This document shows, piece by piece, positions 374-15,127 of a DNA stretch of 64,000 bases (positions within the stretch are counted from its first letter, which is position 1; the number at the start of each line of letters is the position of its first letter). The translations under genes were made by a program, and so were the position numbers. The notes below the pieces were generated by a model. It ran no database searches and had not been told where the DNA came from. It saw only the letters and a program-made list of their open reading frames with translations. The DNA is from an uncultured Bacilli bacterium (GTDB taxonomy: Bacteria > Bacillota_I > Bacilli_A > RF39 > UBA660), in the NCBI GenBank assembly GCA_934129885.1, contig CAKOWU010000002.1, positions 76,070 through 140,069 of the forward strand, in the 5' to 3' direction.

Positions 374-1849
374 TTATCCTACGGTATACGGACTATCTGA
401 AGTCCCGTCTCCCTCAAGAGAGATGTCAGAGGATAGATAAAGAACTGGCGCCGCGCCGAAACTGTTAAGAGCGAAGTTGTAGATCAGGTTGCCGCCACTG
501 CCCACATTGAACACGAGGCTAACGTTGGAGCTAGAGGAAGGCGCGATTGTCCATGAAAAACTTTTTGCCGCAGGTCCTGCGTAAATCCAGTTATGCGTAT
601 CACTATTATTATAACATGATGATGTAACAGAATATGCATTTACATTTGTACATGCGGAATTGGTACTGGCTTTTACATAATCACTTTGATTCATTAATCC
701 TACTTTACCTTTCCATTTATACGTTTGTTCCTGCGATATTGTATTTGATAAATTGGTTTCATCTTTTTTTGTTACTCCTACATTAAACATATGTGATACT
801 ACTATATTTTGAACATTACTACTTAAACTATTATACCAATCATTATTTAAATATGTATTTAAATAAGCTTCTTTCTCCGGTAAATCTTTTAAAGTTCCAT
901 CTACAGTCCGAGGCATTTGGGTTACATTTTTTCCATTGGTATCAAGTGTAGTTGTTTTACTTCCCCATACATTGCAGCCCAAGTATGAAGATGCTTTAGA
1001 AACATAACAGTAATCTGCACTTGTACTAGAATATCTAGTACCATCAGTTGAATTTGAACCTGTTACACCAGTAATGCTTGTTGAATACCCAGGGTCAAAC
1101 ACCTTATTACCTATACTACCATTCTTTATTACCTTGAGTGTGTTATCACTTTCTACCGATATTATTCTATATGTATCTGTACCTAATGTAATATAGTTAT
1201 TTGGGTTTGCTCCTCTATACACATATCTGCCTGCTTCGGTAGTATCTTTATATAAACCATCACCAGATGTTGTCGCTAACGTTTTTAAATCGTCTATACT
1301 TTTACCATTAGAAGTTATTGGTATATCACTCGTACCATCACTTTGTGTAAAGTCTAAAGTAGCGGTTAGTGATGCATCTAGTTTTGTGGGCTGTGATGTG
1401 ATTTTACTATTATATGTTACACTTACATTAAGTATAGCACTCTCTCCTTTACGTAATACTCCGCCTTCTTTTAAACCTTTTGTTTCAAATAATACTGCTG
1501 GGTTATCTTCTTTAGTTAAAGTTATTTTATTAAGTTTGGCGTCTAAACTACCTTTATTTTCTACCTTAATATTATAAGTTATAGAGTCTCCTGGAGACAC
1601 TAAATTGGTACTAAAAGTCGCAGTTAGTTTTTCAAAGGTTGGCTGCTCTTTTACTGATGCACTACCTACTTTATTACTAGTAGTAATATCTGTTATCTCT
1701 ACATCCCATGTAGTAGATATATTAGATGTACCAGATATCTTTAAACTACTTGCGAAAGCCGCATATCCTACGGCCATAACAACTATAACCGCAAGTAAAC
1801 CTCCTATAAGTATATTTTTATTATTCTTATAACTTCTATGTCTATTCAT
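374..1849 (-). CDS. Secreted/surface protein, paralog 1: basic N-terminus plus one TM with a GYAAFASSLKISG motif, and a C-terminal W-x-x-x-P...G-A-A-P-V-L-Y-L lectin-like module with a hypervariable block
   Basis: 491-aa ORF, GGTGAT RBS, highly similar by eye along its length to 22324..23802 apart from a linker region and the hypervariable block. Confidence 0.85.
   Translation of the reverse strand: MNRHRSYKNNKNILIGGLLAVIVVMAVGYAAFASSLKISGTSNISTTWDVEITDITTSNKVGSASVKEQPTFEKLTATFSTNLVSPGDSITYNIKVENKGSLDAKLNKITLTKEDNPAVLFETKGLKEGGVLRKGESAILNVSVTYNSKITSQPTKLDASLTATLDFTQSDGTSDIPITSNGKSIDDLKTLATTSGDGLYKDTTEAGRYVYRGANPNNYITLGTDTYRIISVESDNTLKVIKNGSIGNKVFDPGYSTSITGVTGSNSTDGTRYSSTSADYCYVSKASSYLGCNVWGSKTTTLDTNGKNVTQMPRTVDGTLKDLPEKEAYLNTYLNNDWYNSLSSNVQNIVVSHMFNVGVTKKDETNLSNTISQEQTYKWKGKVGLMNQSDYVKASTNSACTNVNAYSVTSSCYNNSDTHNWIYAGPAAKSFSWTIAPSSSSNVSLVFNVGSGGNLIYNFALNSFGAAPVLYLSSDISLEGDGTSDSPYTVG
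455..531 (-). other. Hypervariable block, copy 1 (DGR variable-region-like)
   Basis: 26 codons, 17 ending in C. 20 differences from copy 2, 18 of them at codon positions 1-2. Followed 3' by the 12-nt G/C-only run 447..458. Confidence 0.6.
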
Positions 1850-2002: not shown

Positions 2003-2032
2003 AGAAAAAGAAGACCTATTTGACAGTCTTCT
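2003..2032 (-). terminator. Terminator after aspS
   Basis: Stem AGAAGAC/GTCTTCT (2009-2015 / 2026-2032) followed by TTTTTC on the minus strand. Confidence 0.5.
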
Positions 2033-3773
2033 ATCTTATCTTTATATGAACTTCTCTAAGTTGTTGTTCTGAAACAGTACTAGGAGAACCCATCATATTA
2101 TCAATACCTAAAGTATTAGGTGGGAATGCTTGTACTTCTCTTAAATTTTTCTCATCACGTAATAACATAAGCATTCTATCTATTCCAGGAGCCATACCGG
2201 CATGTGGAGGAACTCCATACTTAAATGCTGTATAAAGTGATTTAAATTTTTCTTTAACAATATCTTCTGTATAGCCTACTTCCTTAAATCCGTGCATTAA
2301 ACTATCTAAATCATGGTTACGTACAGCACCTGAACTCATTTCAAAGCCATTACATACAAAGTCATATTGATAAGCAAGTATATCTTTTATATCGCCATTA
2401 TATGCGTTCATACCACCTTGTGGCATACTAAATGGATTATGTCCAAAATCCCATTTATTTTCTTCTTCGTTCCACTCAAACATAGGCATATCATTAATAA
2501 TACAAAATTCGTATTTATTAGGATCTATTAATTCTAACTTTTTACCTAACTCTGTTCTTATTTGACCGGCGTAATTTGCCGCGACTGATTCTTTTCTGTT
2601 AGCGATAAAGAATATAACATCTCCTTTTGAAAGTTCTGCCTTACTAATTAGTGCTTTTCTCTCATCATCAGATAGAAATTTATCAATAGGGCCTTTAAAG
2701 GTATTATCGCCTAAAACAGATATATATCCAATACCAGGCATACCAATTGAAGATGCGAAATCTACTATTTCATTAAACCAACTATTAGATTTATCTGCGA
2801 TGCCTTCTACTTTTATACCTCTAACAATGGACTTTTGAAAAGGTTTAAATGTAGTATTCGCAAATTCTTCTGTTAAATCTATTATCAAAAGGGGATTTCT
2901 TAAATCTGGTTTATCAGTACCATATTTAAGCATTGCCTCTTTATATGGTATTCTTTTAAATGGTCTTTCTGAAACTTCTTTTGATGAAAAATGTTTGAAA
3001 GTATCGTAAAATATTTCTTCACCTATTTTATAAACATCTTCTTCAGTTGCGAAAGCCATTTCAAAATCTAACTGGTAAAACTCAAGGGTTCTATCAGCAC
3101 GAGAGTCTTCATCTCTAAAGCAAGGTGCGATTTGATAATACTTATCAAAGCCCCCTACCATAAGTAACTCCTTGAATATTTGTGGAGCCTGCGGTAAAGC
3201 ATAAAACTGACCTTTATACTTTCTAGATGGAACTAGAAAATCTCTAGCACCCTCTGGAGATGAAGCTGTTAAAATAGGTGTTTGAACTTCAGTAAAACCT
3301 AAACTATCCATTTTATTTCTTAAATATTTTAATAGTTCACTTCTAAACTTAATATTATCATGTACTCTATTGTTTCTCATATCTAAATAGCGATACTTAA
3401 GTCTTAATTCTTCATTTACTTTAGTGCTTGTTTTTATCTCAAATGGTAATTCATGTAAAGACTTGCCAAGTAGTGTAAACTCTTTAATAAGTATCTCTAC
3501 TGTACCAGATTTAATTTTTGGATTAAAGTTTTCTTCATCACGCATTCTAACAACGCCCTCTAAAGAAATAGTAGATTCTTTAGCAAGCCCATTAAATATA
3601 GAATCATCGTTACTTACTATTTGAACAGTACCAGTTTCGTCTCTTAAATCTACAAATATAACTCCGCCATGATCTCTAATGTTTTCTACCCAGCCTGCGA
3701 CCTTTACAGTTTTACCAAGAACGTCCTCAGTAATTTCACCGGGTCTTATATTTCTATATATATTATCCATCAT
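2031..3773 (-). CDS. aspS: Aspartate--tRNA ligase, probably non-discriminating given linkage to gatCAB and tRNA-Asn
   Basis: 580 aa with class II aaRS motifs (FRDED..R, GGMAPGIDR-like GMAPGIDRMLML) and an OB-fold N-terminus. Confidence 0.95.
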   Translation of the reverse strand: MMDNIYRNIRPGEITEDVLGKTVKVAGWVENIRDHGGVIFVDLRDETGTVQIVSNDDSIFNGLAKESTISLEGVVRMRDEENFNPKIKSGTVEILIKEFTLLGKSLHELPFEIKTSTKVNEELRLKYRYLDMRNNRVHDNIKFRSELLKYLRNKMDSLGFTEVQTPILTASSPEGARDFLVPSRKYKGQFYALPQAPQIFKELLMVGGFDKYYQIAPCFRDEDSRADRTLEFYQLDFEMAFATEEDVYKIGEEIFYDTFKHFSSKEVSERPFKRIPYKEAMLKYGTDKPDLRNPLLIIDLTEEFANTTFKPFQKSIVRGIKVEGIADKSNSWFNEIVDFASSIGMPGIGYISVLGDNTFKGPIDKFLSDDERKALISKAELSKGDVIFFIANRKESVAANYAGQIRTELGKKLELIDPNKYEFCIINDMPMFEWNEEENKWDFGHNPFSMPQGGMNAYNGDIKDILAYQYDFVCNGFEMSSGAVRNHDLDSLMHGFKEVGYTEDIVKEKFKSLYTAFKYGVPPHAGMAPGIDRMLMLLRDEKNLREVQAFPPNTLGIDNMMGSPSTVSEQQLREVHIKIR

Positions 3774-3774
3774 C

Positions 3775-5229
3775 TCACCTCTTCTCTATTTCTTCTAGCA
3801 TAGTCTCACGTGCCATACTAGGATTAGCCTTTCCTTTAGTCTTTTTCATAATTTGACCTACTAAATAATCAGCAACATTATTTTTACCAGATTTATATTT
3901 TTCTACTAACTCTGGATTTTCATCTAATACCTCGTTAGCAACTTTCACAATCGCAGTCTTATCAGTTATCTGCATCATGCCTTTTTCTTTGACTATTGCC
4001 TCTGGTACCTTACCTTCTGCCATACAAATTGCAAAAACTTCTTTGGCTTGTTTTGAAGATATAACCTTATCTTCTACAAGTTTAATAAGTTGACATAAGT
4101 GGGCAGGTGTCATTAAAGCATCAGAAATAGTCTTATTTTCTTTATTAAGAGTACCAAGTATATTAGTTGTGATCCAGTTAGAAGCACTCTTAGGATTAGC
4201 ATCTAAACTAATAGCCTCTTCAAAGAAATCAGACACATCTTTTTCCTTAACTAATATAGTGGCATCATAATCAGTTAAACCATATTCTTCTATATATAAC
4301 TTCTTTCTTTCTGAAGCAAGCATAGGAATTTCTTCCTTAATCTCTTCTATCCATTCTTTAGATAATCTAACCTTTGGAATATTTGGCTCTACAAAATATT
4401 TATAATCAATGGCGTCTGCCTTACTACGCATAAACTTTGTACTCATAGAATCTTCATCCCATCTACGAGTTTGTTGTTCCATAGAATCGTATTCACCAGT
4501 CTCTTTTAGATCGGTTTGTCTTTCTATTTCATAGTTAATAGCGTCTCTAACACCACCGAAAGAATTGACATTCTTAATCTCAATTTTAGTACCCCAGTTA
4601 CTTGGGTCATTCTCATCAAGTGAGGCATCCATGATAGACACATTAACATCACATCTAATTTGTCCTTTTTTACTATCAGCCTCACTTATACCAGCATACT
4701 GATATATACTTCTCATGGTTTCTAGGAATGCGACTGCCTCATCAGCACTTCTAAAACAAGGAGTTGTAACAAGTTCAAGTAATGGAACGCCCGCTCTATT
4801 ATAATCAATCTTTGATACATCACCAGTATGAACTGAAGATGCAGCATCTTCTTCTAAATGCAAATTATCAATGATAGCTTCTTTTTCTTCGCCATTACAT
4901 TCAAATTTTAATTTACCATATATTCCAACTGGTATAGGTTTAGTTTCCTGCGTAATTTGAAAGCCTTTAGGTAAATCTGGATAGTAATAGTTTTTTCTTT
5001 CAAAATACATATATTCTGGTTGTGTGCATTTTAATATTAAACTTGCCATAACTGCTTTTTTTACGGCTTCTTTATTAACTACTGGTAAAGTACCAGGAAA
5101 AGCCATATCAACTGGTCTAATATTAACATTCGCACTTTCATTATAATCATTCGCCGCAGATGAAAATACTTTAGTATTAGTTTCACTTATCTCACAGTGC
5201 ATTTCAAGTCCAATTAATGCCTTATACAT
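3775..5229 (-). CDS. gatB: Asp/Glu-tRNA amidotransferase subunit B
   Basis: 484 aa with the typical GatB N-terminus (IGLEMHCE...) and a C-terminal YqeY-like tail. Confidence 0.95.
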   Translation of the reverse strand: MYKALIGLEMHCEISETNTKVFSSAANDYNESANVNIRPVDMAFPGTLPVVNKEAVKKAVMASLILKCTQPEYMYFERKNYYYPDLPKGFQITQETKPIPVGIYGKLKFECNGEEKEAIIDNLHLEEDAASSVHTGDVSKIDYNRAGVPLLELVTTPCFRSADEAVAFLETMRSIYQYAGISEADSKKGQIRCDVNVSIMDASLDENDPSNWGTKIEIKNVNSFGGVRDAINYEIERQTDLKETGEYDSMEQQTRRWDEDSMSTKFMRSKADAIDYKYFVEPNIPKVRLSKEWIEEIKEEIPMLASERKKLYIEEYGLTDYDATILVKEKDVSDFFEEAISLDANPKSASNWITTNILGTLNKENKTISDALMTPAHLCQLIKLVEDKVISSKQAKEVFAICMAEGKVPEAIVKEKGMMQITDKTAIVKVANEVLDENPELVEKYKSGKNNVADYLVGQIMKKTKGKANPSMARETMLEEIEKR

Positions 5230-6686
5230 TATTTCACCTCCATGGCTGTTTGCCCTTTATAGTCCATACTGCTTTCTAAAGCATAAGCAATATTTAAAAC
5301 ATTTACGTCGTCATAGCATTTTCCTGTTATATTAAGTCCTACTGGAAGATTATTTACAAAACCATCAGGTATAGTAATTGATGGGAAACCGCCAAAGTTT
5401 CCTATTTGTAGATGATCCTCTAAAGCATTTATATTTTTATCTTCACTGCTGAAGGAATAATCTATATCTTTCGCAGGTCCAGTACTTACAGGAAGAATAA
5501 TGCCATCATATTCTTTAAAAAGTTCGTTCCATCTATCCACTAAAAGTCTTCTAACTCTTTGAGCATTATGGAAATATCTGTCCTTGTTCTCTGACTGTAG
5601 AACATAAGAACCAATTACAAATCTTCTTTTAATGAGTGAAGAAAAGCCTTCGGTACGATATTTTTTCATAGACTCATCCCATGTCTTACCTTCTGCTCTA
5701 GGTCCAAAGATAAAACCAGTTAAATTGCTCATATTTGATGTTGCCTCTGCGCATGATATAACAACATAAACTGATGGCTCTGCGTCGAGTAGTTTTCTAT
5801 CTACTGATACGCCTTCAACCTCAATACCTAATTTCTCACATAACTTTAACTTGTCTTTAAAGTTTTCTAAATGCATCTTTAATTCATCATCAGCATTAGG
5901 ATAGTTTTCTATATCACACAACTCTTTAATGTAACATAACTTTTTACCTTTAACGTTTCCATCTATACTATCATATAAATTAATATCAGATGAATCCCAA
6001 GAAGTCATATCATATTTATCGATACCTTTCATACCATCTACTACAATAGCGGCATCCTTTACACTTCTAGTTAAAGCCCCACAGTGATCTAAACTACTAG
6101 CAAAAGGAAATAAGCCATATCTTGATATCATACCATATGTAGGTTTATAACCAACTATACCGCAGTATGCCGCAGGCTTTCTAATAGAATCTCCAGTATC
6201 ACTACCTGTCGCATATGGAATAACTCCAGCCGCAACTGCTGCTGCACTTCCTGAAGAAGAACCAGCACACATTTTAGATGTATCCCATGGATTTAAAATC
6301 TTACCAGTATGTGCCGTAGTACCAGTACCGCCCATGCCAAATTCATCCATCGCTGTCTTAGATACTAGTGTAGCACCATGTTTTGATAAATTTTCTATTG
6401 CTGTAGCACTAAAAAATGGAACGTAATTTTTTAAAGTATTTGAAGAACCTGTTGAAAGAATACCTTTGGTACTATAATTATCTTTTGCGGCATAAGGAAT
6501 ACCAGATAATAAATCATCAGTAACTTTCTTTTCTTCTACGTCATCTAAAATAGTAACAAAAGCATTACATTTTTTTTGTAATTCTTTAGACTTTTCTATA
6601 GCCTCTTTAATAAGTTCTTTACTTGTTACTTTGTTTTCTTTTAAATCATTATGTATTTGTTCAATACTTTTATCCATATATGACAT
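5229..6686 (-). CDS. gatA: Asp/Glu-tRNA amidotransferase subunit A (amidase signature)
   Basis: Amidase signature GGSSSGSAAAVAAG. Likely start is MSYMDKS at 6686, just after the gatC stop. Confidence 0.95.
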   Translation of the reverse strand: MSYMDKSIEQIHNDLKENKVTSKELIKEAIEKSKELQKKCNAFVTILDDVEEKKVTDDLLSGIPYAAKDNYSTKGILSTGSSNTLKNYVPFFSATAIENLSKHGATLVSKTAMDEFGMGGTGTTAHTGKILNPWDTSKMCAGSSSGSAAAVAAGVIPYATGSDTGDSIRKPAAYCGIVGYKPTYGMISRYGLFPFASSLDHCGALTRSVKDAAIVVDGMKGIDKYDMTSWDSSDINLYDSIDGNVKGKKLCYIKELCDIENYPNADDELKMHLENFKDKLKLCEKLGIEVEGVSVDRKLLDAEPSVYVVISCAEATSNMSNLTGFIFGPRAEGKTWDESMKKYRTEGFSSLIKRRFVIGSYVLQSENKDRYFHNAQRVRRLLVDRWNELFKEYDGIILPVSTGPAKDIDYSFSSEDKNINALEDHLQIGNFGGFPSITIPDGFVNNLPVGLNITGKCYDDVNVLNIAYALESSMDYKGQTAMEVK

Positions 6687-6687
6687 A

Positions 6688-6984
6688 TTATCCCACCATC
6701 CTTGGTACAACTACGGCATCTCCATCACTATCACCGCAGTTAGCAAATATTTCTTCTTTTGATATTGACTCTTCTTTTACATCTTCTCTAAATGTACACT
6801 CAAAATCATCTAATGCATGAGTCATTGGAACAATATCACTAATATCATCTATCTCATTTATTCTAGCAATACTAGCGTCTATTTCCTCAAATTCATCAAG
6901 CACTTTTTTATTTTCTTCTTCTGTAAGACCAATTAATAACTTATCTGCATAGTCATCAACCATTTCTTTAGTAAACTTTCCCAT
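6688..6984 (-). CDS. gatC: Asp/Glu-tRNA amidotransferase subunit C
   Basis: 98 aa, sits upstream of gatA, has a GGAGG RBS. Confidence 0.9.
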   Translation of the reverse strand: MGKFTKEMVDDYADKLLIGLTEEENKKVLDEFEEIDASIARINEIDDISDIVPMTHALDDFECTFREDVKEESISKEEIFANCGDSDGDAVVVPRMVG

Positions 6985-7012
6985 TACATATCCTCCTTTT
7001 AAAACAAAATAT

Positions 7013-7047
7013 ATAAAAAATAAGTCTATAGGATAAATCCTAGAGAC
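7013..7047 (-). terminator. Hairpin plus U-run between tRNA-Asn and gatC (terminator or attenuator/processing site)
   Basis: Minus strand GUCUCUAGG-AUUUAU-CCUAUAGAC (8 bp plus 1 mismatch) followed by UUAUUUUUUAU. Confidence 0.4.
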
Positions 7048-7063
7048 CTACTTAATAACTAAA

Positions 7064-7139
7064 TGGCGCCTGATGTAGGACTCGAACCTACGACCTAACG
7101 GTTAACAGCCGTGCGCTCTACCGACTGAGCTAATCAGGC
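7064..7139 (-). tRNA. tRNA-Asn (GUU), encoded CCA
   Basis: Cloverleaf read by hand: acceptor GCCUGAU/AUCAGGC, anticodon loop CUGUUAA, T-arm GGUUCGAGUCC. Confidence 0.9.
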
Positions 7140-7143
7140 AAAG

Positions 7144-7219
7144 TGGCGCCCAATGTAGGACTCGAACCTACGACCTAACGGTTAACAGCCGTGCGCTCTA
7201 CCAACTGAGCTAATTGGGC
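7144..7219 (-). tRNA. tRNA-Asn (GUU), second tandem copy
   Basis: Body identical to 7064..7139, with compensated acceptor-stem changes (GCCCAAU/AUUGGGC). Confidence 0.9.
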
Positions 7220-7221
7220 AA

Positions 7222-7480
7222 AAGTATAAAAAGACAGTTAAGCGTCCCCATATAAGGACGAATAACTGTAACTCGCGGTACCACCTTATTTATCACACGA
7301 AGTGATCTCTCTATAGTTTCAAATGAAACTTATAACGCGGTAACGGGTTACATCCGATTTATCCTACTGTTATTTCAGATAAATTACTCTGTGGTGTTAT
7401 TCACAGTAGTATTATTATTAGTTCTCATCATACTAACTTTCTGTAAATAAGTGACTACTGTTACTTCTCCACTTCCTAGT
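7222..7480 (-). promoter_or_regulatory. T-box riboswitch leader, candidate Asn (AAC) specifier
   Basis: T-box sequence AAUAAGGUGGUACCGCGAG (7271-7290). Terminator ACAGUUA..CGUCC-loop-GGACG..UAACUGU plus CUUUUUAU. Stem I base GUGG/CCAC encloses AGAAGUAA and UGAAUAACA, with AAC-A (7396-7398) directly before the closing helix. Confidence 0.75.
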
Positions 7481-7507
7481 ATCTATAAAATATTTATAAA
7501 CAAATTT

Positions 7508-7584
7508 TGGTAGTCCGTACGGGATTTGAACCCGTGAATGCATGCGTGAAAGGCATGTGTGTTAACCAATTTCACCAACGGACC
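7508..7584 (-). tRNA. tRNA-Glu (UUC)
   Basis: Anticodon loop CUUUCAC, acceptor GGUCCGU/ACGGACU, encoded CCA. Confidence 0.85.
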
Positions 7585-7592
7585 AAATTAAA

Positions 7593-7669
7593 TGGTGGGC
7601 CTGGCAGGACTTGAACCTGCGACCCCTCGCTTATCAAGCGAGTGCTCTAACCAACTGAGCTACAGGCCC
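7593..7669 (-). tRNA. tRNA-Ile (GAU)
   Basis: Anticodon loop CUUGAUAA, acceptor GGGCCUG/CAGGCCC, encoded CCA. Confidence 0.85.
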
Positions 7670-7688
7670 AACTCAATTTGACCCTTTA

Positions 7689-7717
7689 AGTATACATTAT
7701 TTTATAGACTTTGACAA
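7689..7717 (-). promoter_or_regulatory. Sigma-A-type promoter for the tRNA cluster
   Basis: Minus strand TTGTCA, 17 nt, TATACT, about 20 nt upstream of tRNA-Ile. Confidence 0.5.
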
Positions 7718-7818
7718 CCCTTTTTAGAATGTTTTATTATTTTTTTTAAGATTTTATGGTTTTTCTTTCAAAAAAATACCAATTTGGTATAAAATATTTG
7801 TATAAGGAAGTGATACAT

Positions 7819-8466
7819 ATGCCTTCATGGCCAGTACATATTGCCCTAGCAAAAAAACTTAATAAAGATTTAAAGCTGTCTGACGATTTTATTTTAGGTA
7901 ACATAATCCCAGACGTTCCGAACGGATACATAATACCAAATACAAGGTGTAAGAAAACAAAAAGATTTACTCATTTTAATATTAATAAAGAAAACACTAA
8001 ACCAATTATAAGCATAGAAGATTTCTTAAAAAAATATCAAAATAAATTAAATAATCCCATTATATTAGGATATTATACTCATCTTCTAACTGATAAATAT
8101 TTTAATGATGATTTTCATAAAAAACATGTAAAAAATAAAATTATTATATTAAAGGACGGTACTCCCAATAACACTCAATTTAAAGGCTGGGAACTAAAGC
8201 AAAAAGATTTTAACGTTTTCGGAGACTACCTTACCTTAAATGGTAATTTAGAAAACCCTATATTTCAAACTAAAGATACAAAAAAATTGATTAAAGATTT
8301 ACCCTTCACTTTTCCAAATGAGGATATAACTTTAACCATTAATAAAATAAATTTATTTATAACTAATATTCCAAGTAAACAAACAGATTACCTAGTTTAC
8401 ACCGAAGAAGAACTTATGAATACATTTAATAACTGTTATAAATATATTTTAAAAATTATCAAGTAA
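7819..8466 (+). CDS. Hypothetical metal-dependent hydrolase (zinc phospholipase-C-like N-terminus MPSWPVH)
   Basis: AAGGAAG RBS before the ATG at 7819. W-x-x-H N-terminus and HLLTD motif. Family assignment is weak. Confidence 0.4.
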   Translation: MPSWPVHIALAKKLNKDLKLSDDFILGNIIPDVPNGYIIPNTRCKKTKRFTHFNINKENTKPIISIEDFLKKYQNKLNNPIILGYYTHLLTDKYFNDDFHKKHVKNKIIILKDGTPNNTQFKGWELKQKDFNVFGDYLTLNGNLENPIFQTKDTKKLIKDLPFTFPNEDITLTINKINLFITNIPSKQTDYLVYTEEELMNTFNNCYKYILKIIK

Positions 8467-9667
8467 AAAATCAATTATATTTTTATGAATAATACCTTTC
8501 TGGGAAAAATCAAAAGTATCAGCAGAAATAACATATTTAGGATAATTATCCCCAATATTATTATATACCCCAAATTCTCTATCAATAATATCATCATTTA
8601 AATGGAACGCAACCTGAAAATACTTCTTCTCTTCAAACCTAGTCGCAATAAAATCTATCTCGCCATTTTCTAAAGTGCCAACCTTTACATCGTACCCTCT
8701 AGAAATAAGTTCATTATAAACAATATTTTCTAAATATACTCCCATTTGTTTCTTTCTTTCACTGTTTACTACTTGCCCTAATCCAAGGTCTGTTAAATAA
8801 TATTTATATTTTCCGTTTAAAATTCTTTTGCCTCTTACATCATACCTGTCCGCCTTATGTATAAGAAATACCCTACACATATATTCCAAATAATTATAAA
8901 TAGTTACTTTTGAAACTTCAATATTATCACCAAGCAAATAATTAGAAAGACTTTCCGCCGAAAATGTTTGTGACGGAGTAGTAACTATATATGTAAGTAT
9001 TTTATTAAAAAGATCTAAATCTTTTATCTTAAACCTATCAACAATATCTTTTATAACAATAGAATTATATATATCAGATAAATATGTCCTTATTTGTGGC
9101 TCACTATCTAAAGCAAACCTTTGCGGCATACCACCCCCATAAAATAAAGTCATCAAATTCTTTTGCTAACTCATATTTATCTTTATCACTAATATTTTTA
9201 AGTTCGCATACCTCTTTAAGAGTAAATGGATATATATTAAAATTTACATACCTTCCAGCAATATGTGTCGCAAGTTCTCTAGATAACAAATCACTATTAG
9301 AGCCTGTTATAAATATTGATACACCCTCTCCGTATTTCGCTTTAAATGAATTAACTACTCGCTCCCAACCATCAACATTTTGAATTTCATCAAAGAACAA
9401 ATAATACTTTTCATCATTAACCATTTTACCCTTTACATATTCATAAAATTTTTTAGCATCTAGTATATCTGCATAATCCATAAACTCAAAATTAATATAA
9501 ATAATTTGACTTTCCTTAACCTTCATTTCTTTTAACTCGTCCATTATCTGGCTTAATATAACAGACTTTCCTGGTCTTCTAATACCGGTTAATACTTTAA
9601 TTAAATCTTGATTATAAAAAGGTCTTATCTTCTCCAAATACTTTTTTCTCTTTATCGCTTTGCTCAT
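8449..9667 (-). pseudogene. Frameshifted AAA ATPase (AAA_14 plus DUF4143 type)
   Basis: N-terminal ORF has P-loop GIRRPGKS and the C-terminal ORF is DUF4143-like. The frames join at a G-run near 9140-9160 (..DDFILWGW.. versus ..LFYGGGMPQRF..). Confidence 0.7.
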
Positions 9668-11705: not shown

Positions 11706-14441
11706 CTATTTTCCATTTACAACTTCATTACAGTGTGTACATATACCACCAGTTATCTCAAGTTCATCGAAGTAATTCCAGCATCTTTCGCATCTAATAC
11801 CTTCAAACTTCTCTACCTTAACCATACAGTTGTCATATTTAGTAAACTCATTCGTACTTAAAACAACATCAGAAACAATTAATAACTGTTTTAAATCCGG
11901 TAATATATCATGAAGCATCTCTTTATCTTCTTCTCTTAAATTCAAATAAACCTTTGCCTCTAATGACTTACCAATAATCTTTTCACTTCTTGCCTCTTCA
12001 AGAGCCTTATAAACATCGTTCTTAATGCCAAAGAAAGCGTTCCATTTTTCCTTCAATTCTTCTTTCTCTTTATAAATTAAAACTTCTGGGAAACTTTCTA
12101 AATGAACAGATTCTTCCTTTCTATAAGGCATAAATTTATAAACTTCTTCACTAGTATAAGGAAGTACTGGAGCCATAAGCCTTACTAAATTATAAATAAT
12201 TTCATATAAAACAGTCTGAACACTACGTCTGCGAACACTGTCAGCCTTATCTATATATAAAATATCTTTAGTAAAATCAAGGTAGAAATTAGATAAACTA
12301 GATATATAATTATTAAATAGCTTGTATATCTCATCAAAATTATAATCATCATAATTCTTTCTAATATTCTTTACAAAATCATTTAAATTTACAAGCATAT
12401 ATTTATCAACACTAGAAAGTCTGTCATAAGCAATCTTATCTTTTTTAGGATTAAAATCAGAAATATTACCTAAAATAAATCTATAAGTATTTCTAATCTT
12501 TCTATAACTCTCTTTAACTTGCGTAAGAAGTTCACTACTAAACCTAACATCTTCTGTAAAGTCAACACTAAGAGCCCAAAGTCTTAAAATATCAGAACCA
12601 TGTTTTGATACAATGTCCATTGGAGCCACTACATTACCAATAGACTTACTCATCTTAAGGCCCTTACCATCTAAAACAAAACCAGATGATAGAAGTTCCT
12701 TATATGGGCTTTTACCAAAAGCCGCAACACTACAAATTAATGAAGAATTAAACCATCCTCTATATTGGTCAGAGCCCTCAAGATAAATATCGGCAGGATA
12801 ACTCATACCTCTTTCCATAAGTACTCCCGCAAATGAAGTTCCAGAGTCAAACCAAACATCCATTATATCAGTTTCTTTAGTAAATTTACCATTCGGAGAT
12901 GCTGGATTTGTATAACCCTTTGGTAATAAATCTACCGCATCCTTTTCAAACCAATAATTAGAGCCATGTTCTCTAAATAACTTTGAAACATGCATCATAA
13001 CATCATAATCTACTATTTCAGAGCCATCTTCATTATAGAATATTGGAATAGGTACACCCCAAGCCCTTTGTCTTGAAATACACCAGTCTCCTCTGCCCTC
13101 AATCATATTACGAATTCTAGTCTTACCCCATTCAGTATGGAATTTTATCTTATTATCAATTTCATTTAATAAATCATCTCTTATCTTATCCACACTACAG
13201 AACCATTGCTTTGTTGCTCTAAAAATAATAGGCTTTTTAGTACGCCAATCATGTGGATATGAGTGCTTAATAAACTTAAGTTTAAGTAGATAACCATTTT
13301 CATCTAACCAACCAGTTATAGCCTTATTCGCGTCTTCAAAGAATAAACCCTCAAACATACCAGACTCTTTATTTAAAGTACCGTCATCATCAACACCATT
13401 AACCATATCAAGGTTACAGTTCTTACCAACAATAAAGTCATCCTCACCATAAGCAGGTGCCGTATGAACAAGTCCAGTTCCAGCTTCAGTTGTGACATGA
13501 TGTCCAATAACCACAGGGCTAATTCTATCCATAAATGGGTGTTTATAAGTAATACCTACTAAATCAGTACCTTTAAAAGTATTTAAAGTCTCATACTCAT
13601 CAAAGCCAAACTCTTCCATTAAGCCTGAAACAAGTTCTGTTGCGACAACGTAGTTAGAACCATTACTTTTTATAAGAGAATATTCTAGATTTTCACCTAC
13701 ACACACGCCAGTATTTCCCGGTAAAGTCCATGGAGTAGTTGTCCAAATAACAAGTTTATCTCCAGCACTTACAAAATCATTACCTTCTTCTACTGTAAAA
13801 GCTACAAAAACTGAAGGATCTTTTCTGTCCTTATACTCAATTTCAGCCTCCGCAAGTGCAGTTTCTGAAGAAGGAGACCAATATACTGGTTTTAATCCCT
13901 TAAATATTAAACCTTTTTTAGCCATTTTAGCAAATATCTCAATTTGTCTTGCCTCATATTCTTTTTTCAAAGTTATATAAGGATTATCAAAATCTCCCAT
14001 AATATTAAGTTTTATGAAATCATTCTTCTGCTTATCTACTTGCTTTAAAGCATATTCCATACATAACTTTCTAAAATCTGCGACGCTCATTTCTTTTCTG
14101 TTTACACCACTATTAGTAACCGCCTGTTCAATAGGAAGACCATGAGTATCCCATCCAGGAACGAAGTCTACAAAATAGCCTTCCATCATCTTTGAACGAT
14201 TTATAAAATCCTTAAGAATTTTTTGAAACGCATGACCAATATGAATATTTCCGTTAGCGTATGGTGGACCATCATGTAAAACAAAAGGTTTATTACTTTT
14301 ATTTTTCTCTTTTATCTTATTATATAAATCCATCTCTCCCCATTTTTCTCTCTGTAAAATCTCATTCTCTGCGAGATTGCCCCTCATTTTAAACTCTGTT
14401 TTTGGCATTAATAAAGTATCTTTATAATCCATTTCTCTCAT
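11706..14441 (-). CDS. ileS: Isoleucine--tRNA ligase
   Basis: 911 aa with HIGH (NIHIGH), KMSKS and a C-terminal zinc ribbon CERCW...CTHC. Confidence 0.97.
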   Translation of the reverse strand: MREMDYKDTLLMPKTEFKMRGNLAENEILQREKWGEMDLYNKIKEKNKSNKPFVLHDGPPYANGNIHIGHAFQKILKDFINRSKMMEGYFVDFVPGWDTHGLPIEQAVTNSGVNRKEMSVADFRKLCMEYALKQVDKQKNDFIKLNIMGDFDNPYITLKKEYEARQIEIFAKMAKKGLIFKGLKPVYWSPSSETALAEAEIEYKDRKDPSVFVAFTVEEGNDFVSAGDKLVIWTTTPWTLPGNTGVCVGENLEYSLIKSNGSNYVVATELVSGLMEEFGFDEYETLNTFKGTDLVGITYKHPFMDRISPVVIGHHVTTEAGTGLVHTAPAYGEDDFIVGKNCNLDMVNGVDDDGTLNKESGMFEGLFFEDANKAITGWLDENGYLLKLKFIKHSYPHDWRTKKPIIFRATKQWFCSVDKIRDDLLNEIDNKIKFHTEWGKTRIRNMIEGRGDWCISRQRAWGVPIPIFYNEDGSEIVDYDVMMHVSKLFREHGSNYWFEKDAVDLLPKGYTNPASPNGKFTKETDIMDVWFDSGTSFAGVLMERGMSYPADIYLEGSDQYRGWFNSSLICSVAAFGKSPYKELLSSGFVLDGKGLKMSKSIGNVVAPMDIVSKHGSDILRLWALSVDFTEDVRFSSELLTQVKESYRKIRNTYRFILGNISDFNPKKDKIAYDRLSSVDKYMLVNLNDFVKNIRKNYDDYNFDEIYKLFNNYISSLSNFYLDFTKDILYIDKADSVRRRSVQTVLYEIIYNLVRLMAPVLPYTSEEVYKFMPYRKEESVHLESFPEVLIYKEKEELKEKWNAFFGIKNDVYKALEEARSEKIIGKSLEAKVYLNLREEDKEMLHDILPDLKQLLIVSDVVLSTNEFTKYDNCMVKVEKFEGIRCERCWNYFDELEITGGICTHCNEVVNGK

Positions 14442-14451
14442 CTCCTCATAA

Positions 14452-14660
14452 CAAAAAAAGTCCTTAAATCTTAAGGACGAAAAAATCGCGGTACCACCTT
14501 ACTTTATAGATATAAATCTATACACTCAAAACTATAACGCGTTACCGTTCATCCCTACTTAAATTTTAGGAAAACACATCAAGAGTGATCCATATATTAA
14601 TGATTTATTAGTTCACACCAACCACTAATTCTCTGCGAAATCTATATAATATAACGTCTC
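14452..14660 (-). promoter_or_regulatory. T-box leader of ileS (candidate AUC specifier at 14587-14589)
   Basis: AAGGUGGUACCGCG (14487-14500), then terminator GUCCUUAAGAUUUAAGGAC plus a U-run immediately upstream of ileS. Confidence 0.8.
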
Positions 14661-14671
14661 TATCAACTGTT

Positions 14672-15127
14672 TTAAAGTTCCACTTTTTCAATTTCATCAA
14701 TAACCTCAAGTTGTTGCTCTACAATGTTTTTAAGCCTTCTTTTAAATACTGTAACATTTCTTTGAAGTGTCATCGCATCATTTTCAATCTTTTCTGCTCT
14801 TTGTAACGCCTCATTAACTATTCTACTAGCGTTCTTTTTAGCGTCATCAAGCATAATCTCACTTTCCTTATGAGCCGCAACTTTAAGTTGATCGGAAGTC
14901 TTTTGTGCCATAATAATTGCTCTATTCAAAGTATCTTCCATTCTTTCATATTGGGCAAGTCTTTCCATGACCTCAGGATTGCCTTGATTTTTCTTAAGTC
15001 TTTCAATCTCTTTATCTTTAGCGTTTATCTCTGAAATCATCTCTTCAATACGTGTAATGATTTGATCTAAAAAGTTATTAACTTCTTCTGGATCATAGCC
15101 CCTTAGTACACGATTAAATCTTTCCAT
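14672..15127 (-). CDS. divIVA: DivIVA-domain cell-division protein
   Basis: N-terminal F-x-x-x-LRGYDxxEV motif, coiled coil, position upstream of ileS as in Bacillus. Confidence 0.85.
   Translation of the reverse strand: MERFNRVLRGYDPEEVNNFLDQIITRIEEMISEINAKDKEIERLKKNQGNPEVMERLAQYERMEDTLNRAIIMAQKTSDQLKVAAHKESEIMLDDAKKNASRIVNEALQRAEKIENDAMTLQRNVTVFKRRLKNIVEQQLEVIDEIEKVEL

Follow-up and report, generated by a model that had tools for sequence, protein, structure and literature searches.

An asparagine T-box leader directly before tRNA-Asn genes and gatCAB-aspS in an uncultured Bacilli bacterium

Can a riboswitch that senses a transfer RNA (tRNA) also gate the production of that tRNA? The question is raised by a locus in a 64-kb window (the whole stretch of DNA analysed, 64,000 nucleotides of contig CAKOWU010000002.1 from an uncultured Bacilli bacterium), in which a T-box leader of the asparagine type is followed directly by two tRNA-Asn genes and then by gatC, gatA, gatB and aspS, which encode the amidotransferase GatCAB and aspartyl-tRNA synthetase (AspRS). 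Features in this one window were called with ARAGORN, Rfam, NCBIfam, Pfam and a sigma-70 promoter scan. The order on the minus strand is promoter, tRNA-Ile, tRNA-Glu, Asn T-box, two tRNA-Asn genes, hairpin with U-run, gatC-gatA-gatB-aspS and terminator; each element listed in an initial annotation of this DNA is present. That annotation had offered two readings, that the riboswitch gates transcription of its own ligand, or that all components of indirect Asn-tRNA(Asn) synthesis form one uncharged-tRNA-sensing unit. The two are mutually compatible, and comparative data from at least 67 genomes and three closed chromosomes favour both. The layout points to a single unit whose T-box probably gates both tRNA-Asn genes and, past a leaky hairpin, gatCAB-aspS. 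The features on which this reading depends are as follows.

7689-7717, minus strand: operon promoter, TTGTCA-17-TATACT (scan, 10/12 matches)
7593-7669, minus strand: tRNA-Ile, anticodon GAU (ARAGORN; Rfam tRNA, 77.6 bits)
7508-7584, minus strand: tRNA-Glu, anticodon UUC (ARAGORN, Rfam)
7221-7486, minus strand: Asn-specific T-box leader (Stem I with specifier loop, Stem II, Stem IIA/B, Stem III, antiterminator/terminator)
7396-7398, minus strand: specifier codon AAC (Asn), then the conserved purine A at 7395 (covariance-model alignment)
7274-7285, minus strand: T-box sequence GGUGGUACCGCG (Rfam alignment)
7226-7269, minus strand: intrinsic terminator of the T-box, a 14-bp stem (7269-7234) plus CUUUUUAU (7233-7226)
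7144-7219, minus strand: tRNA-Asn (GUU) copy 1, with G1-C72, G73 and encoded CCA (ARAGORN, Rfam)
7064-7139, minus strand: tRNA-Asn (GUU) copy 2 (ARAGORN, Rfam)
7013-7053, minus strand: second hairpin (7053-7018) plus U6 (7020-7015), a terminator-like or processing element at the junction of the tRNA array and gatC

The asparagine leader and the tRNA-Asn genes behind it

The Rfam T-box model RF00230 matched the leader over 7251-7486, from model position 1 to 219 of 219, with 140.3 bits (E 3e-31; gathering score 93). The range 7013-7480, under which the leader had first been reported, also includes the two tRNA-Asn genes and the hairpin; the leader by itself occupies 7221-7486. In the covariance-model alignment the specifier loop reads GAA-U-AAC-A-CCAC, the stretch GAA-U-AAC-A being 7402-7395, and the model assigned AAC, with a purine after it, to 7398-7396, the same position from which the initial annotation had deduced asparagine. 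AAC was invariant in an alignment of 23 homologous leaders, in which 24 of the 41 consensus pairs (Stem I, Stem II, Stem IIA/B, Stem III and antiterminator) carried compensatory changes. The specifier accords with the downstream genes, tRNA-Asn, gatCAB and aspS. The UGGU bulge (7283-7280) is complementary to the tRNA-Asn 3' end G73-C-C-A, with a G-U pair at G73; across 68 leaders the variable base of UGGN was U in 39 and C in 29, and the downstream tRNA-Asn always had G73.

A canonical T-box sequence and terminator had also been claimed and both are present, the former as GGUGGUACCGCG and the latter as a stem of -17.6 kcal/mol (z -4.94 against dinucleotide shuffles) followed by a U-run. Antiterminator pairs are present in the consensus structure of the aligned leaders, and the window-type terminator helix, with compensatory changes and a run of at least five U, was found in ~34 related loci. 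The gap between the terminator U-run and G1 of the first tRNA-Asn is only ~7 nt, therefore a promoter has no room between the T-box terminator and the tRNA-Asn genes. Copy 2 of tRNA-Asn differs from copy 1 by one compensated acceptor-stem change and one D-loop base.

Related loci were collected from 185,579 species-representative genomes, which were scanned for T-box sequences with a tRNA D-arm 45-75 nt later; this gave at least 119 loci. Directly after the T-box, at least 67 species-level gut Bacilli genomes had one to four tRNA-Asn(GUU) genes, and at least 24 of those loci resembled the window in also having tRNA-Ile and tRNA-Glu just ahead of the T-box. Most such loci came from metagenome-assembled genomes (MAGs) labelled uncultured Bacilli, Tenericutes, Erysipelotrichaceae or Candidatus Coprosoma, and the tRNA array held two to four tandem copies in most of them. 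The nearest locus among the matches listed (L010) had 91-95% amino-acid identity. When relatives were checked against the Rfam T-box model, 18 of 20 scored 120-152 bits, the remaining two being cut at contig ends, and four further related loci carried T-boxes at 125-141 bits.

The genes after the tRNA array were gatCAB-aspS, the type of the window, in at least 15 loci, gatCAB-asnS with or without aspS in at least 11, and asnS alone in three loci among the matches listed (the asnS of L003 scored 621 bits). The constant core is the T-box/tRNA-Asn junction, with interchangeable enzymes for charging tRNA-Asn; persistence of this junction through enzyme swaps marks the tRNA as the constant regulated product. 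In several loci (L151, L152, L156, L164, L183 and others) gatCAB, asnS and aspS were found in one cluster beside tRNA-Asn, and such clusters encode the direct and the indirect routes to Asn-tRNA(Asn) side by side.

Two kinds of leader were found among these loci. The kind present in the window, with a 12-17 bp terminator, a run of at least five U and UGGU, occurred in ~34 loci. The second kind, in ~30 loci, had UGGC, its own TTGACA/TATAAT promoter and a conserved terminator-like TTCGTCCC/GGGACGAA hairpin, with a longest U run of 1-3 (examples are L003:155-385, L005:4167-4399, L030:1406-1643 and L090:7081-7323), and ordinary hairpin and U-run terminators followed the tRNA array in loci of this kind.

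The location of all tRNA-Asn genes bears directly on the question. A complete scan was made with the exact 45-nt tRNA-Asn body from window-type relatives and gave 105 stretches. In the closed chromosomes OZ007022.1 (1.52 Mb), OZ007025.1 (1.34 Mb) and OZ007038.1 (1.54 Mb) all four matches were inside a single T-box block, while the same scan found the matches of the controls dispersed, in two blocks in Sellimonas and on three contigs in Clostridiales CHKCI001. A divergent extra tRNA-Asn, invisible to an exact 45-mer scan, may be present in the closed chromosomes. With every detectable copy in these three relatives placed after the T-box, the riboswitch most likely controls production of its ligand as well as of the enzymes of Asn-tRNA(Asn) formation. 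That the T-box array is the only source of tRNA-Asn in the organism of the window itself is given a somewhat better than even chance. A T-box link was present in three of 105 further tRNA-Asn loci listed and absent from 95, the other seven being too near a contig end. Because tRNA-Asn of this type is mostly found without a T-box, the T-box/tRNA-Asn linkage is a lineage-specific arrangement.

Promoters, the second hairpin and alternative explanations

The sigma-70 scan covered 6400-8200 and accepted sites with at least 4/6 matches per hexamer, a good site having at least 10/12. The sole minus-strand site of at least 10/12 was the one upstream of tRNA-Ile, with its -10 ending 19 nt upstream of that gene, and TTGTCA-17-TATACT/TACAAT was kept in 19 of 20 relatives that shared the tRNA-Ile/tRNA-Glu pair and had enough upstream sequence. 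The scan, inspection by eye and conservation gave no convincing separate promoter for the leader in the 21-nt spacer between tRNA-Glu and the T-box (7487-7507, unstructured, with a fold of 0 kcal/mol), nor for gatC in the spacer between tRNA-Asn and gatC; in AT-rich DNA such a negative is not proof for either spacer. The initial annotation saw no obvious promoter belonging to the leader or gatC themselves, and this is borne out by a scan that gives only the tRNA-Ile promoter. From this layout the locus is likely to be co-transcribed as a single minus-strand unit of ~5.7 kb.

The hairpin before gatC had been described as weak with a U-run. The hairpin and its U6 are present; it is not weak, its free energy of -17.0 kcal/mol (z -3.97) being about that of the T-box terminator. 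Most related loci carry at the same position either a hairpin and U-run or CCA followed directly by eight U, with differing sequences, and the U-run and the Shine-Dalgarno sequence of gatC are ~18 nt apart in the window and 10-20 nt apart in relatives. As this is a good and conserved terminator candidate, expression of gatCAB-aspS must rely on partial read-through or on processing there. Conservation of the position, and not of the sequence, suggests that the element is a leaky terminator, possibly also a processing or stability element, which would set a high tRNA-to-mRNA ratio. We speculate that the tandem amplification of tRNA-Asn (two to four copies) may offset the attenuation caused by the T-box terminator.

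A hairpin of this strength (z about -4.0, then U6), with a terminator-like element conserved at its position in most loci, raises the alternative that the T-box controls tRNA-Asn only, the hairpin at 7053-7013 ending the transcript and gatCAB-aspS being transcribed from an unrecognised promoter overlapping the hairpin or the second tRNA-Asn. T-boxes with just tRNA genes behind them do occur in Paenibacillus (L056 and L076), locus L082 has tRNA-Asn and tRNA-Glu with no gat, asnS or aspS match in 7.7 kb downstream, and inspection by eye shows a weak TTATCC-17-TATATT at ~7036-7008. Against this, no site in the tRNA-Asn/gatC spacer had at least 4/6 matches in each hexamer, and the TATAA-like motifs of relatives lie 2-10 nt upstream of a Shine-Dalgarno sequence that is itself 10-20 nt from the U-run; a start set by motifs this close would fall at or inside the Shine-Dalgarno sequence. 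The tight order of tRNA-Asn and then gatC or asnS is also kept in dozens of genomes despite the changing enzyme set. The initial annotation had set against its own proposal an independent gatC promoter combined with a full stop at 7013-7047; this promoter was not found in the scan, the hairpin there being stable, however. Control of tRNA-Asn only is considered unlikely. At the other end of the unit, the leader might own a promoter inside or just after tRNA-Glu, making the T-box unit independent of tRNA-Ile and tRNA-Glu. About 30 related loci without upstream tRNAs have a clear TTGACA/TATAAT directly before the T-box, which indicates that the module can function alone, and the tRNA-Glu/T-box spacer of the window is AT-rich with TATAAA- and TATAGA-like hexamers. 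This spacer is just 21 nt long and holds no scan match, however, and the best -35-like hexamers seen by eye are 10-12 or ~26 nt from the -10-like ones, outside the 16-18 nt spacing. A start set by the spacer hexamers would moreover cut away the base of Stem I, and at least 24 loci keep tRNA-Ile, tRNA-Glu and the T-box in this order and closely spaced, making a separate leader promoter highly improbable.

The T-box might instead mainly regulate gatCAB-aspS, as in Clostridium acetobutylicum, with the tRNA-Asn genes as passengers and the bulk of tRNA-Asn encoded elsewhere; the inserted tRNA-Asn might then be processing punctuation between leader and mRNA, or an extra copy. Such a role would fit the 95 of 105 further loci at which tRNA-Asn of the G1-C72 type, common in related lineages, lacks a T-box, and it would fit the MAG Lapin-005__bin63, which has both a T-box-linked (L082) and an unlinked (L140) tRNA-Asn; the window, moreover, spans just 64 kb. 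It is opposed by the three closed relatives, whose chromosomes hold all four detectable copies in the T-box array, by the two to four tandem copies of the array in most loci and by the survival of the T-box/tRNA junction through enzyme-gene swaps, including an arrangement of T-box, two tRNA-Asn genes and asnS. A passenger role for the tRNA genes is regarded as quite improbable, more so than control of tRNA-Asn only.

The reading preferred here is that the T-box gates the tRNA-Asn genes and, past the leaky hairpin, gatCAB-aspS, and several points weigh against it. Regulation at this locus is read from sequence alone, and we infer co-transcription, the extent of read-through, an AspRS that does not discriminate and the physiological rationale. 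Other tRNA-Asn genes, asnS, asnA/asnB or a second gatCAB may lie elsewhere in the genome, beyond the 64-kb window, and at least one related MAG has both linked and unlinked tRNA-Asn. The ~30 leaders without a U-run mean that termination is not obviously the mechanism in every member. The second hairpin, as stable as the T-box terminator and conserved, could stop most transcripts, in which case gatCAB-aspS might need a promoter that a simple scan missed in the AT-rich spacer. Finally, the tRNA-Asn of the window has G1-C72, against the U1-A72 preference reported for bacterial GatCAB (PMC1635274).

Enzyme genes and the identity of tRNA-Asn

The presence of gatCAB-aspS after the tRNA-Asn pair, as first annotated, agrees with the protein matches; gatC, gatA, gatB and aspS were all matched on the minus strand and are followed by a terminator.

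6688-6984, minus strand: gatC, Shine-Dalgarno sequence GGAGG at 6996-6992 and ATG at 6984 (Pfam GatC E 1e-10, above threshold)
5229-6710, minus strand: gatA, given as the longest open reading frame (ORF) (best NCBIfam match TIGR00132, 432.8 bits, under the cutoff of 481.1)
3775-5229, minus strand: gatB (NF004012, 567.6 bits against a cutoff of 338; PDB GatB matches E 1e-131 to 1e-118)
2031-3773, minus strand: aspS, bacterial-type aspartyl-tRNA synthetase (NF001750, 713.6 bits)
2009-2032, minus strand: intrinsic terminator at the operon end, directly 3' of the aspS stop codon

The best NCBIfam match of GatC was TIGR00135 with 42 bits, under the cutoff of 47.1. The true start of gatA is probably an ATG near 6686, overlapping the gatC stop. 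AspRS is presumed from its operon context to be non-discriminating; an exact look-up of its protein sequence gave no match. No match to asnS was found within the 64-kb window. The ORF beyond the operon terminator (374-1849, minus strand, 491 aa) has a promoter-like site of its own (1982-1954), had sub-threshold Pfam matches only (an Ig-like domain and DUF6273) and is probably outside the operon. Elsewhere in the window, two overlapping ORFs on the same strand in 8449-9667 (minus strand) matched AAA_14 (9104-9667) and DUF4143 (8449-9156); both domains usually belong to one ATPase protein, therefore the pair may be a frameshifted gene.

G1-C72 and G73 were found in both tRNA-Asn genes of the window and in all 142 full-length operon-linked tRNA-Asn from 68 loci. 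U1-A72 is the tRNA-Asn identity element for bacterial GatCAB, and a G1-C72 mutant was amidated ~100-fold less efficiently (PMC1635274). Discrimination between U1-A72 and G1-C72 is made by a 3_10 turn of GatB (K183-M184-E185-E186 in Staphylococcus aureus), and in archaeal GatB, an enzyme that accepts G1-C72, the turn lacks 1-3 residues by comparison (PMC2811023). The GatB of the window has a turn of bacterial length, ADSKKG, with Ser in place of the conserved Met; almost all T-box-linked GatBs have Ser or Thr at this position, and the four bacterial GatB alignments shown by the PDB search all have Met. A GatB of archaeal type, its 3_10 turn shortened, was considered and rejected, as there was no gap relative to S. 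aureus GatB. Also rejected was G1-C72 as the mark of a special, operon-only tRNA-Asn, this being the common tRNA-Asn type of the lineage, mostly without a T-box. The substitution and the sub-cutoff scores of GatA and GatC would be consistent with an amidotransferase adapted to G1-C72 tRNA-Asn. The locus unites the two enzymes that make asparagine on a tRNA with the tRNA 'cofactor' itself, and pairs a predicted bacterial GatCAB with a G1-C72 tRNA-Asn, counter to the published identity rule.

Comparison with known systems and a possible wider class

The precedent named in the initial annotation, T-box control of the tRNA-dependent Asn pathway in C. acetobutylicum, is established; the transamidation operon of that organism (AspRS and GatCAB) is controlled by a T-box that senses tRNA-Asn, as summarised in PMC4052509. 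Both systems place a T-box for tRNA-Asn, which in the window is predicted to act by transcription antitermination, before AspRS and GatCAB genes. Unlike C. acetobutylicum, the loci described here have one to four genes of the sensed tRNA separating the T-box from the enzyme genes. In the window the leader is inside a tRNA operon and not directly after the promoter, and a second terminator-like hairpin precedes gatC. To our knowledge the C. acetobutylicum transamidation operon has no tRNA gene; its T-box, before genes for a non-discriminating AspRS and GatCAB, was reportedly the subject of work by Saad et al. (JBC in 2012 and PNAS in 2013). The specifier loops differ as well, GAA and AAC overlapping in C. 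acetobutylicum, whereas the loop of the window has a single AAC (GAAUAACA). Dual Asn/Glu specificity of the C. acetobutylicum kind was considered for the window and rejected, as GAA and AAC do not overlap in GAAUAACA. Some relatives (L018, L022, L030, L032, L050, L066, L079, L089, L108 and L114) have the specifier loop GAAGAACA, in which the codons GAA (Glu) and AAC (Asn) overlap, offset by one base, like the published two-codon T-box of C. acetobutylicum.

Separate parts of the arrangement have counterparts in other operons. The thrU-tyrU-glyT-thrT-tufB operon of Escherichia coli is a mixed tRNA-mRNA operon from which the tRNAs are released by RNase P and 3' processing. The present locus resembles it in the probable co-transcription of tRNAs with a downstream gene for a protein of the translation apparatus, but thrU-tyrU-glyT-thrT-tufB has no riboswitch, and here a conditional terminator would split constitutive tRNA-Ile and tRNA-Glu from regulated tRNA-Asn. 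In gltX-cysE-cysS of Bacillus subtilis an internal T-box attenuates read-through into the distal genes. A T-box within an operon, after a gene already transcribed, is common to both, although the B. subtilis T-box has protein genes on both sides and the T-box described here has tRNA genes, of which the downstream ones encode the effector.

With synthetase T-boxes (tyrS and glyQS of B. subtilis, ileS of the window) the leader shares Stem I and the specifier, the T-box sequence, mutually exclusive antiterminator and terminator, the U-run and genes matched to the amino acid. It differs from them in that the first product predicted to be regulated is the ligand tRNA and not a protein. The ileS leader is a second T-box in the window (14470-14675, minus strand; Rfam 112.9 bits), with specifier AUC-A (Ile), upstream of the ileS ORF (11706-14441, minus strand; TIGR00392, 981 bits); it is an ordinary synthetase T-box and served as an internal comparison. 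The T-box targets given in the comparative surveys consulted are synthetase, biosynthesis and transporter genes; a 2008 survey records none ahead of amidotransferase genes and nowhere uses the term 'tRNA gene' (PMC2494555). No published description of a T-box directly upstream of cognate tRNA genes was found in the open-access literature. T-box control of AspRS-GatCAB is known; with no report found, cognate tRNA genes as immediate T-box targets are apparently new.

If the T-box gates tRNA-Asn and gatCAB-aspS together, a polymerase starting at the tRNA-Ile promoter would always make tRNA-Ile and tRNA-Glu and would next transcribe the T-box, where the AAC specifier would pair with the GUU anticodon of tRNA-Asn. 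With uncharged tRNA-Asn, the free G73-CCA end would pair with the UGGU bulge and lock the antiterminator, and the polymerase would enter the tRNA-Asn genes; with charged tRNA or none bound, the 7269-7234 terminator would form and the transcript would stop at 7233-7226. Read-through RNA would be cut by RNase P and 3' processing, freeing tRNA-Asn, and some polymerases would pass the second hairpin (7053-7018), giving expression of GatCAB and AspRS. These enzymes would make Asp-tRNA(Asn) and then amidate it to Asn-tRNA(Asn). A build-up of uncharged tRNA-Asn would raise the tRNA scaffold and both enzymes of the indirect pathway together, and the switch would control synthesis of its own ligand.

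T-boxes before other tRNA genes were seen among the loci of the genome scan. In the cultured Paenibacillus filicis KACC14197 (NZ_JBBPCC010000031.1, L056:6600-7210) a promoter, a Phe T-box (specifier UUC-G, Rfam 109.5 bits) and a terminator are followed by three tRNA-Phe(GAA) genes, after which there is no ORF, and a related Paenibacillus MAG (L076:6137-6496) has the same layout. The P. filicis T-box appears to control just the genes of its own ligand. A Candidatus Onthoplasma MAG (L065:3471-5127) carries a Phe T-box (UUC-A), a terminator and one tRNA-Phe, with a gene ~150 nt further downstream that matches NF051887, 'PheS-related mystery ligase SrmL', at 430 bits. In a Ruminococcus flavefaciens MAG (L049:7010-7400) a T-box of 94.7 bits and a terminator precede a 101-nt tRNA-like gene with acceptor GUGCCGU/ACGGUAC (G3:U70), A73-CCA and an expanded anticodon region, and an AlaRS-like ORF (MQWTGLNDLREKYLSFFESKDH...) lies directly after it; L001, L035 and L058 are similar. 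The Phe and tRNA-Ala-like cases suggest that T-boxes controlling cognate tRNA or tRNA-like genes could form a general class that has been overlooked. The widest proposal, that every tRNA-Asn gene of this lineage of small-genome gut Bacilli is behind an Asn T-box and is served by a GatCAB/AspRS adapted to G1-C72 (through Ser/Thr for Met in the GatB 3_10 turn), the window being one instance of a broader, undescribed class of Asn, Phe and tRNA-Ala-like loci, is tentative, with prospects slightly below even.

T-boxes are usually cast as tuning the enzymes or transporters that feed a tRNA, the tRNA pool being taken as given. If the widest proposal is true, this riboswitch would be an autoregulatory gate on the whole cellular supply of its own ligand. 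With the sensed tRNA as the first controlled product, tRNA abundance would become a regulated variable within the loop, and own-ligand gating raises the issue of how the circuit escapes self-locking in the off state. A balance between constitutive (Ile, Glu) and conditional (Asn) tRNAs would arise within one operon. The arrangement is widespread among uncultured gut Bacilli, and the analogous Phe case in a cultured Paenibacillus makes the idea directly testable.

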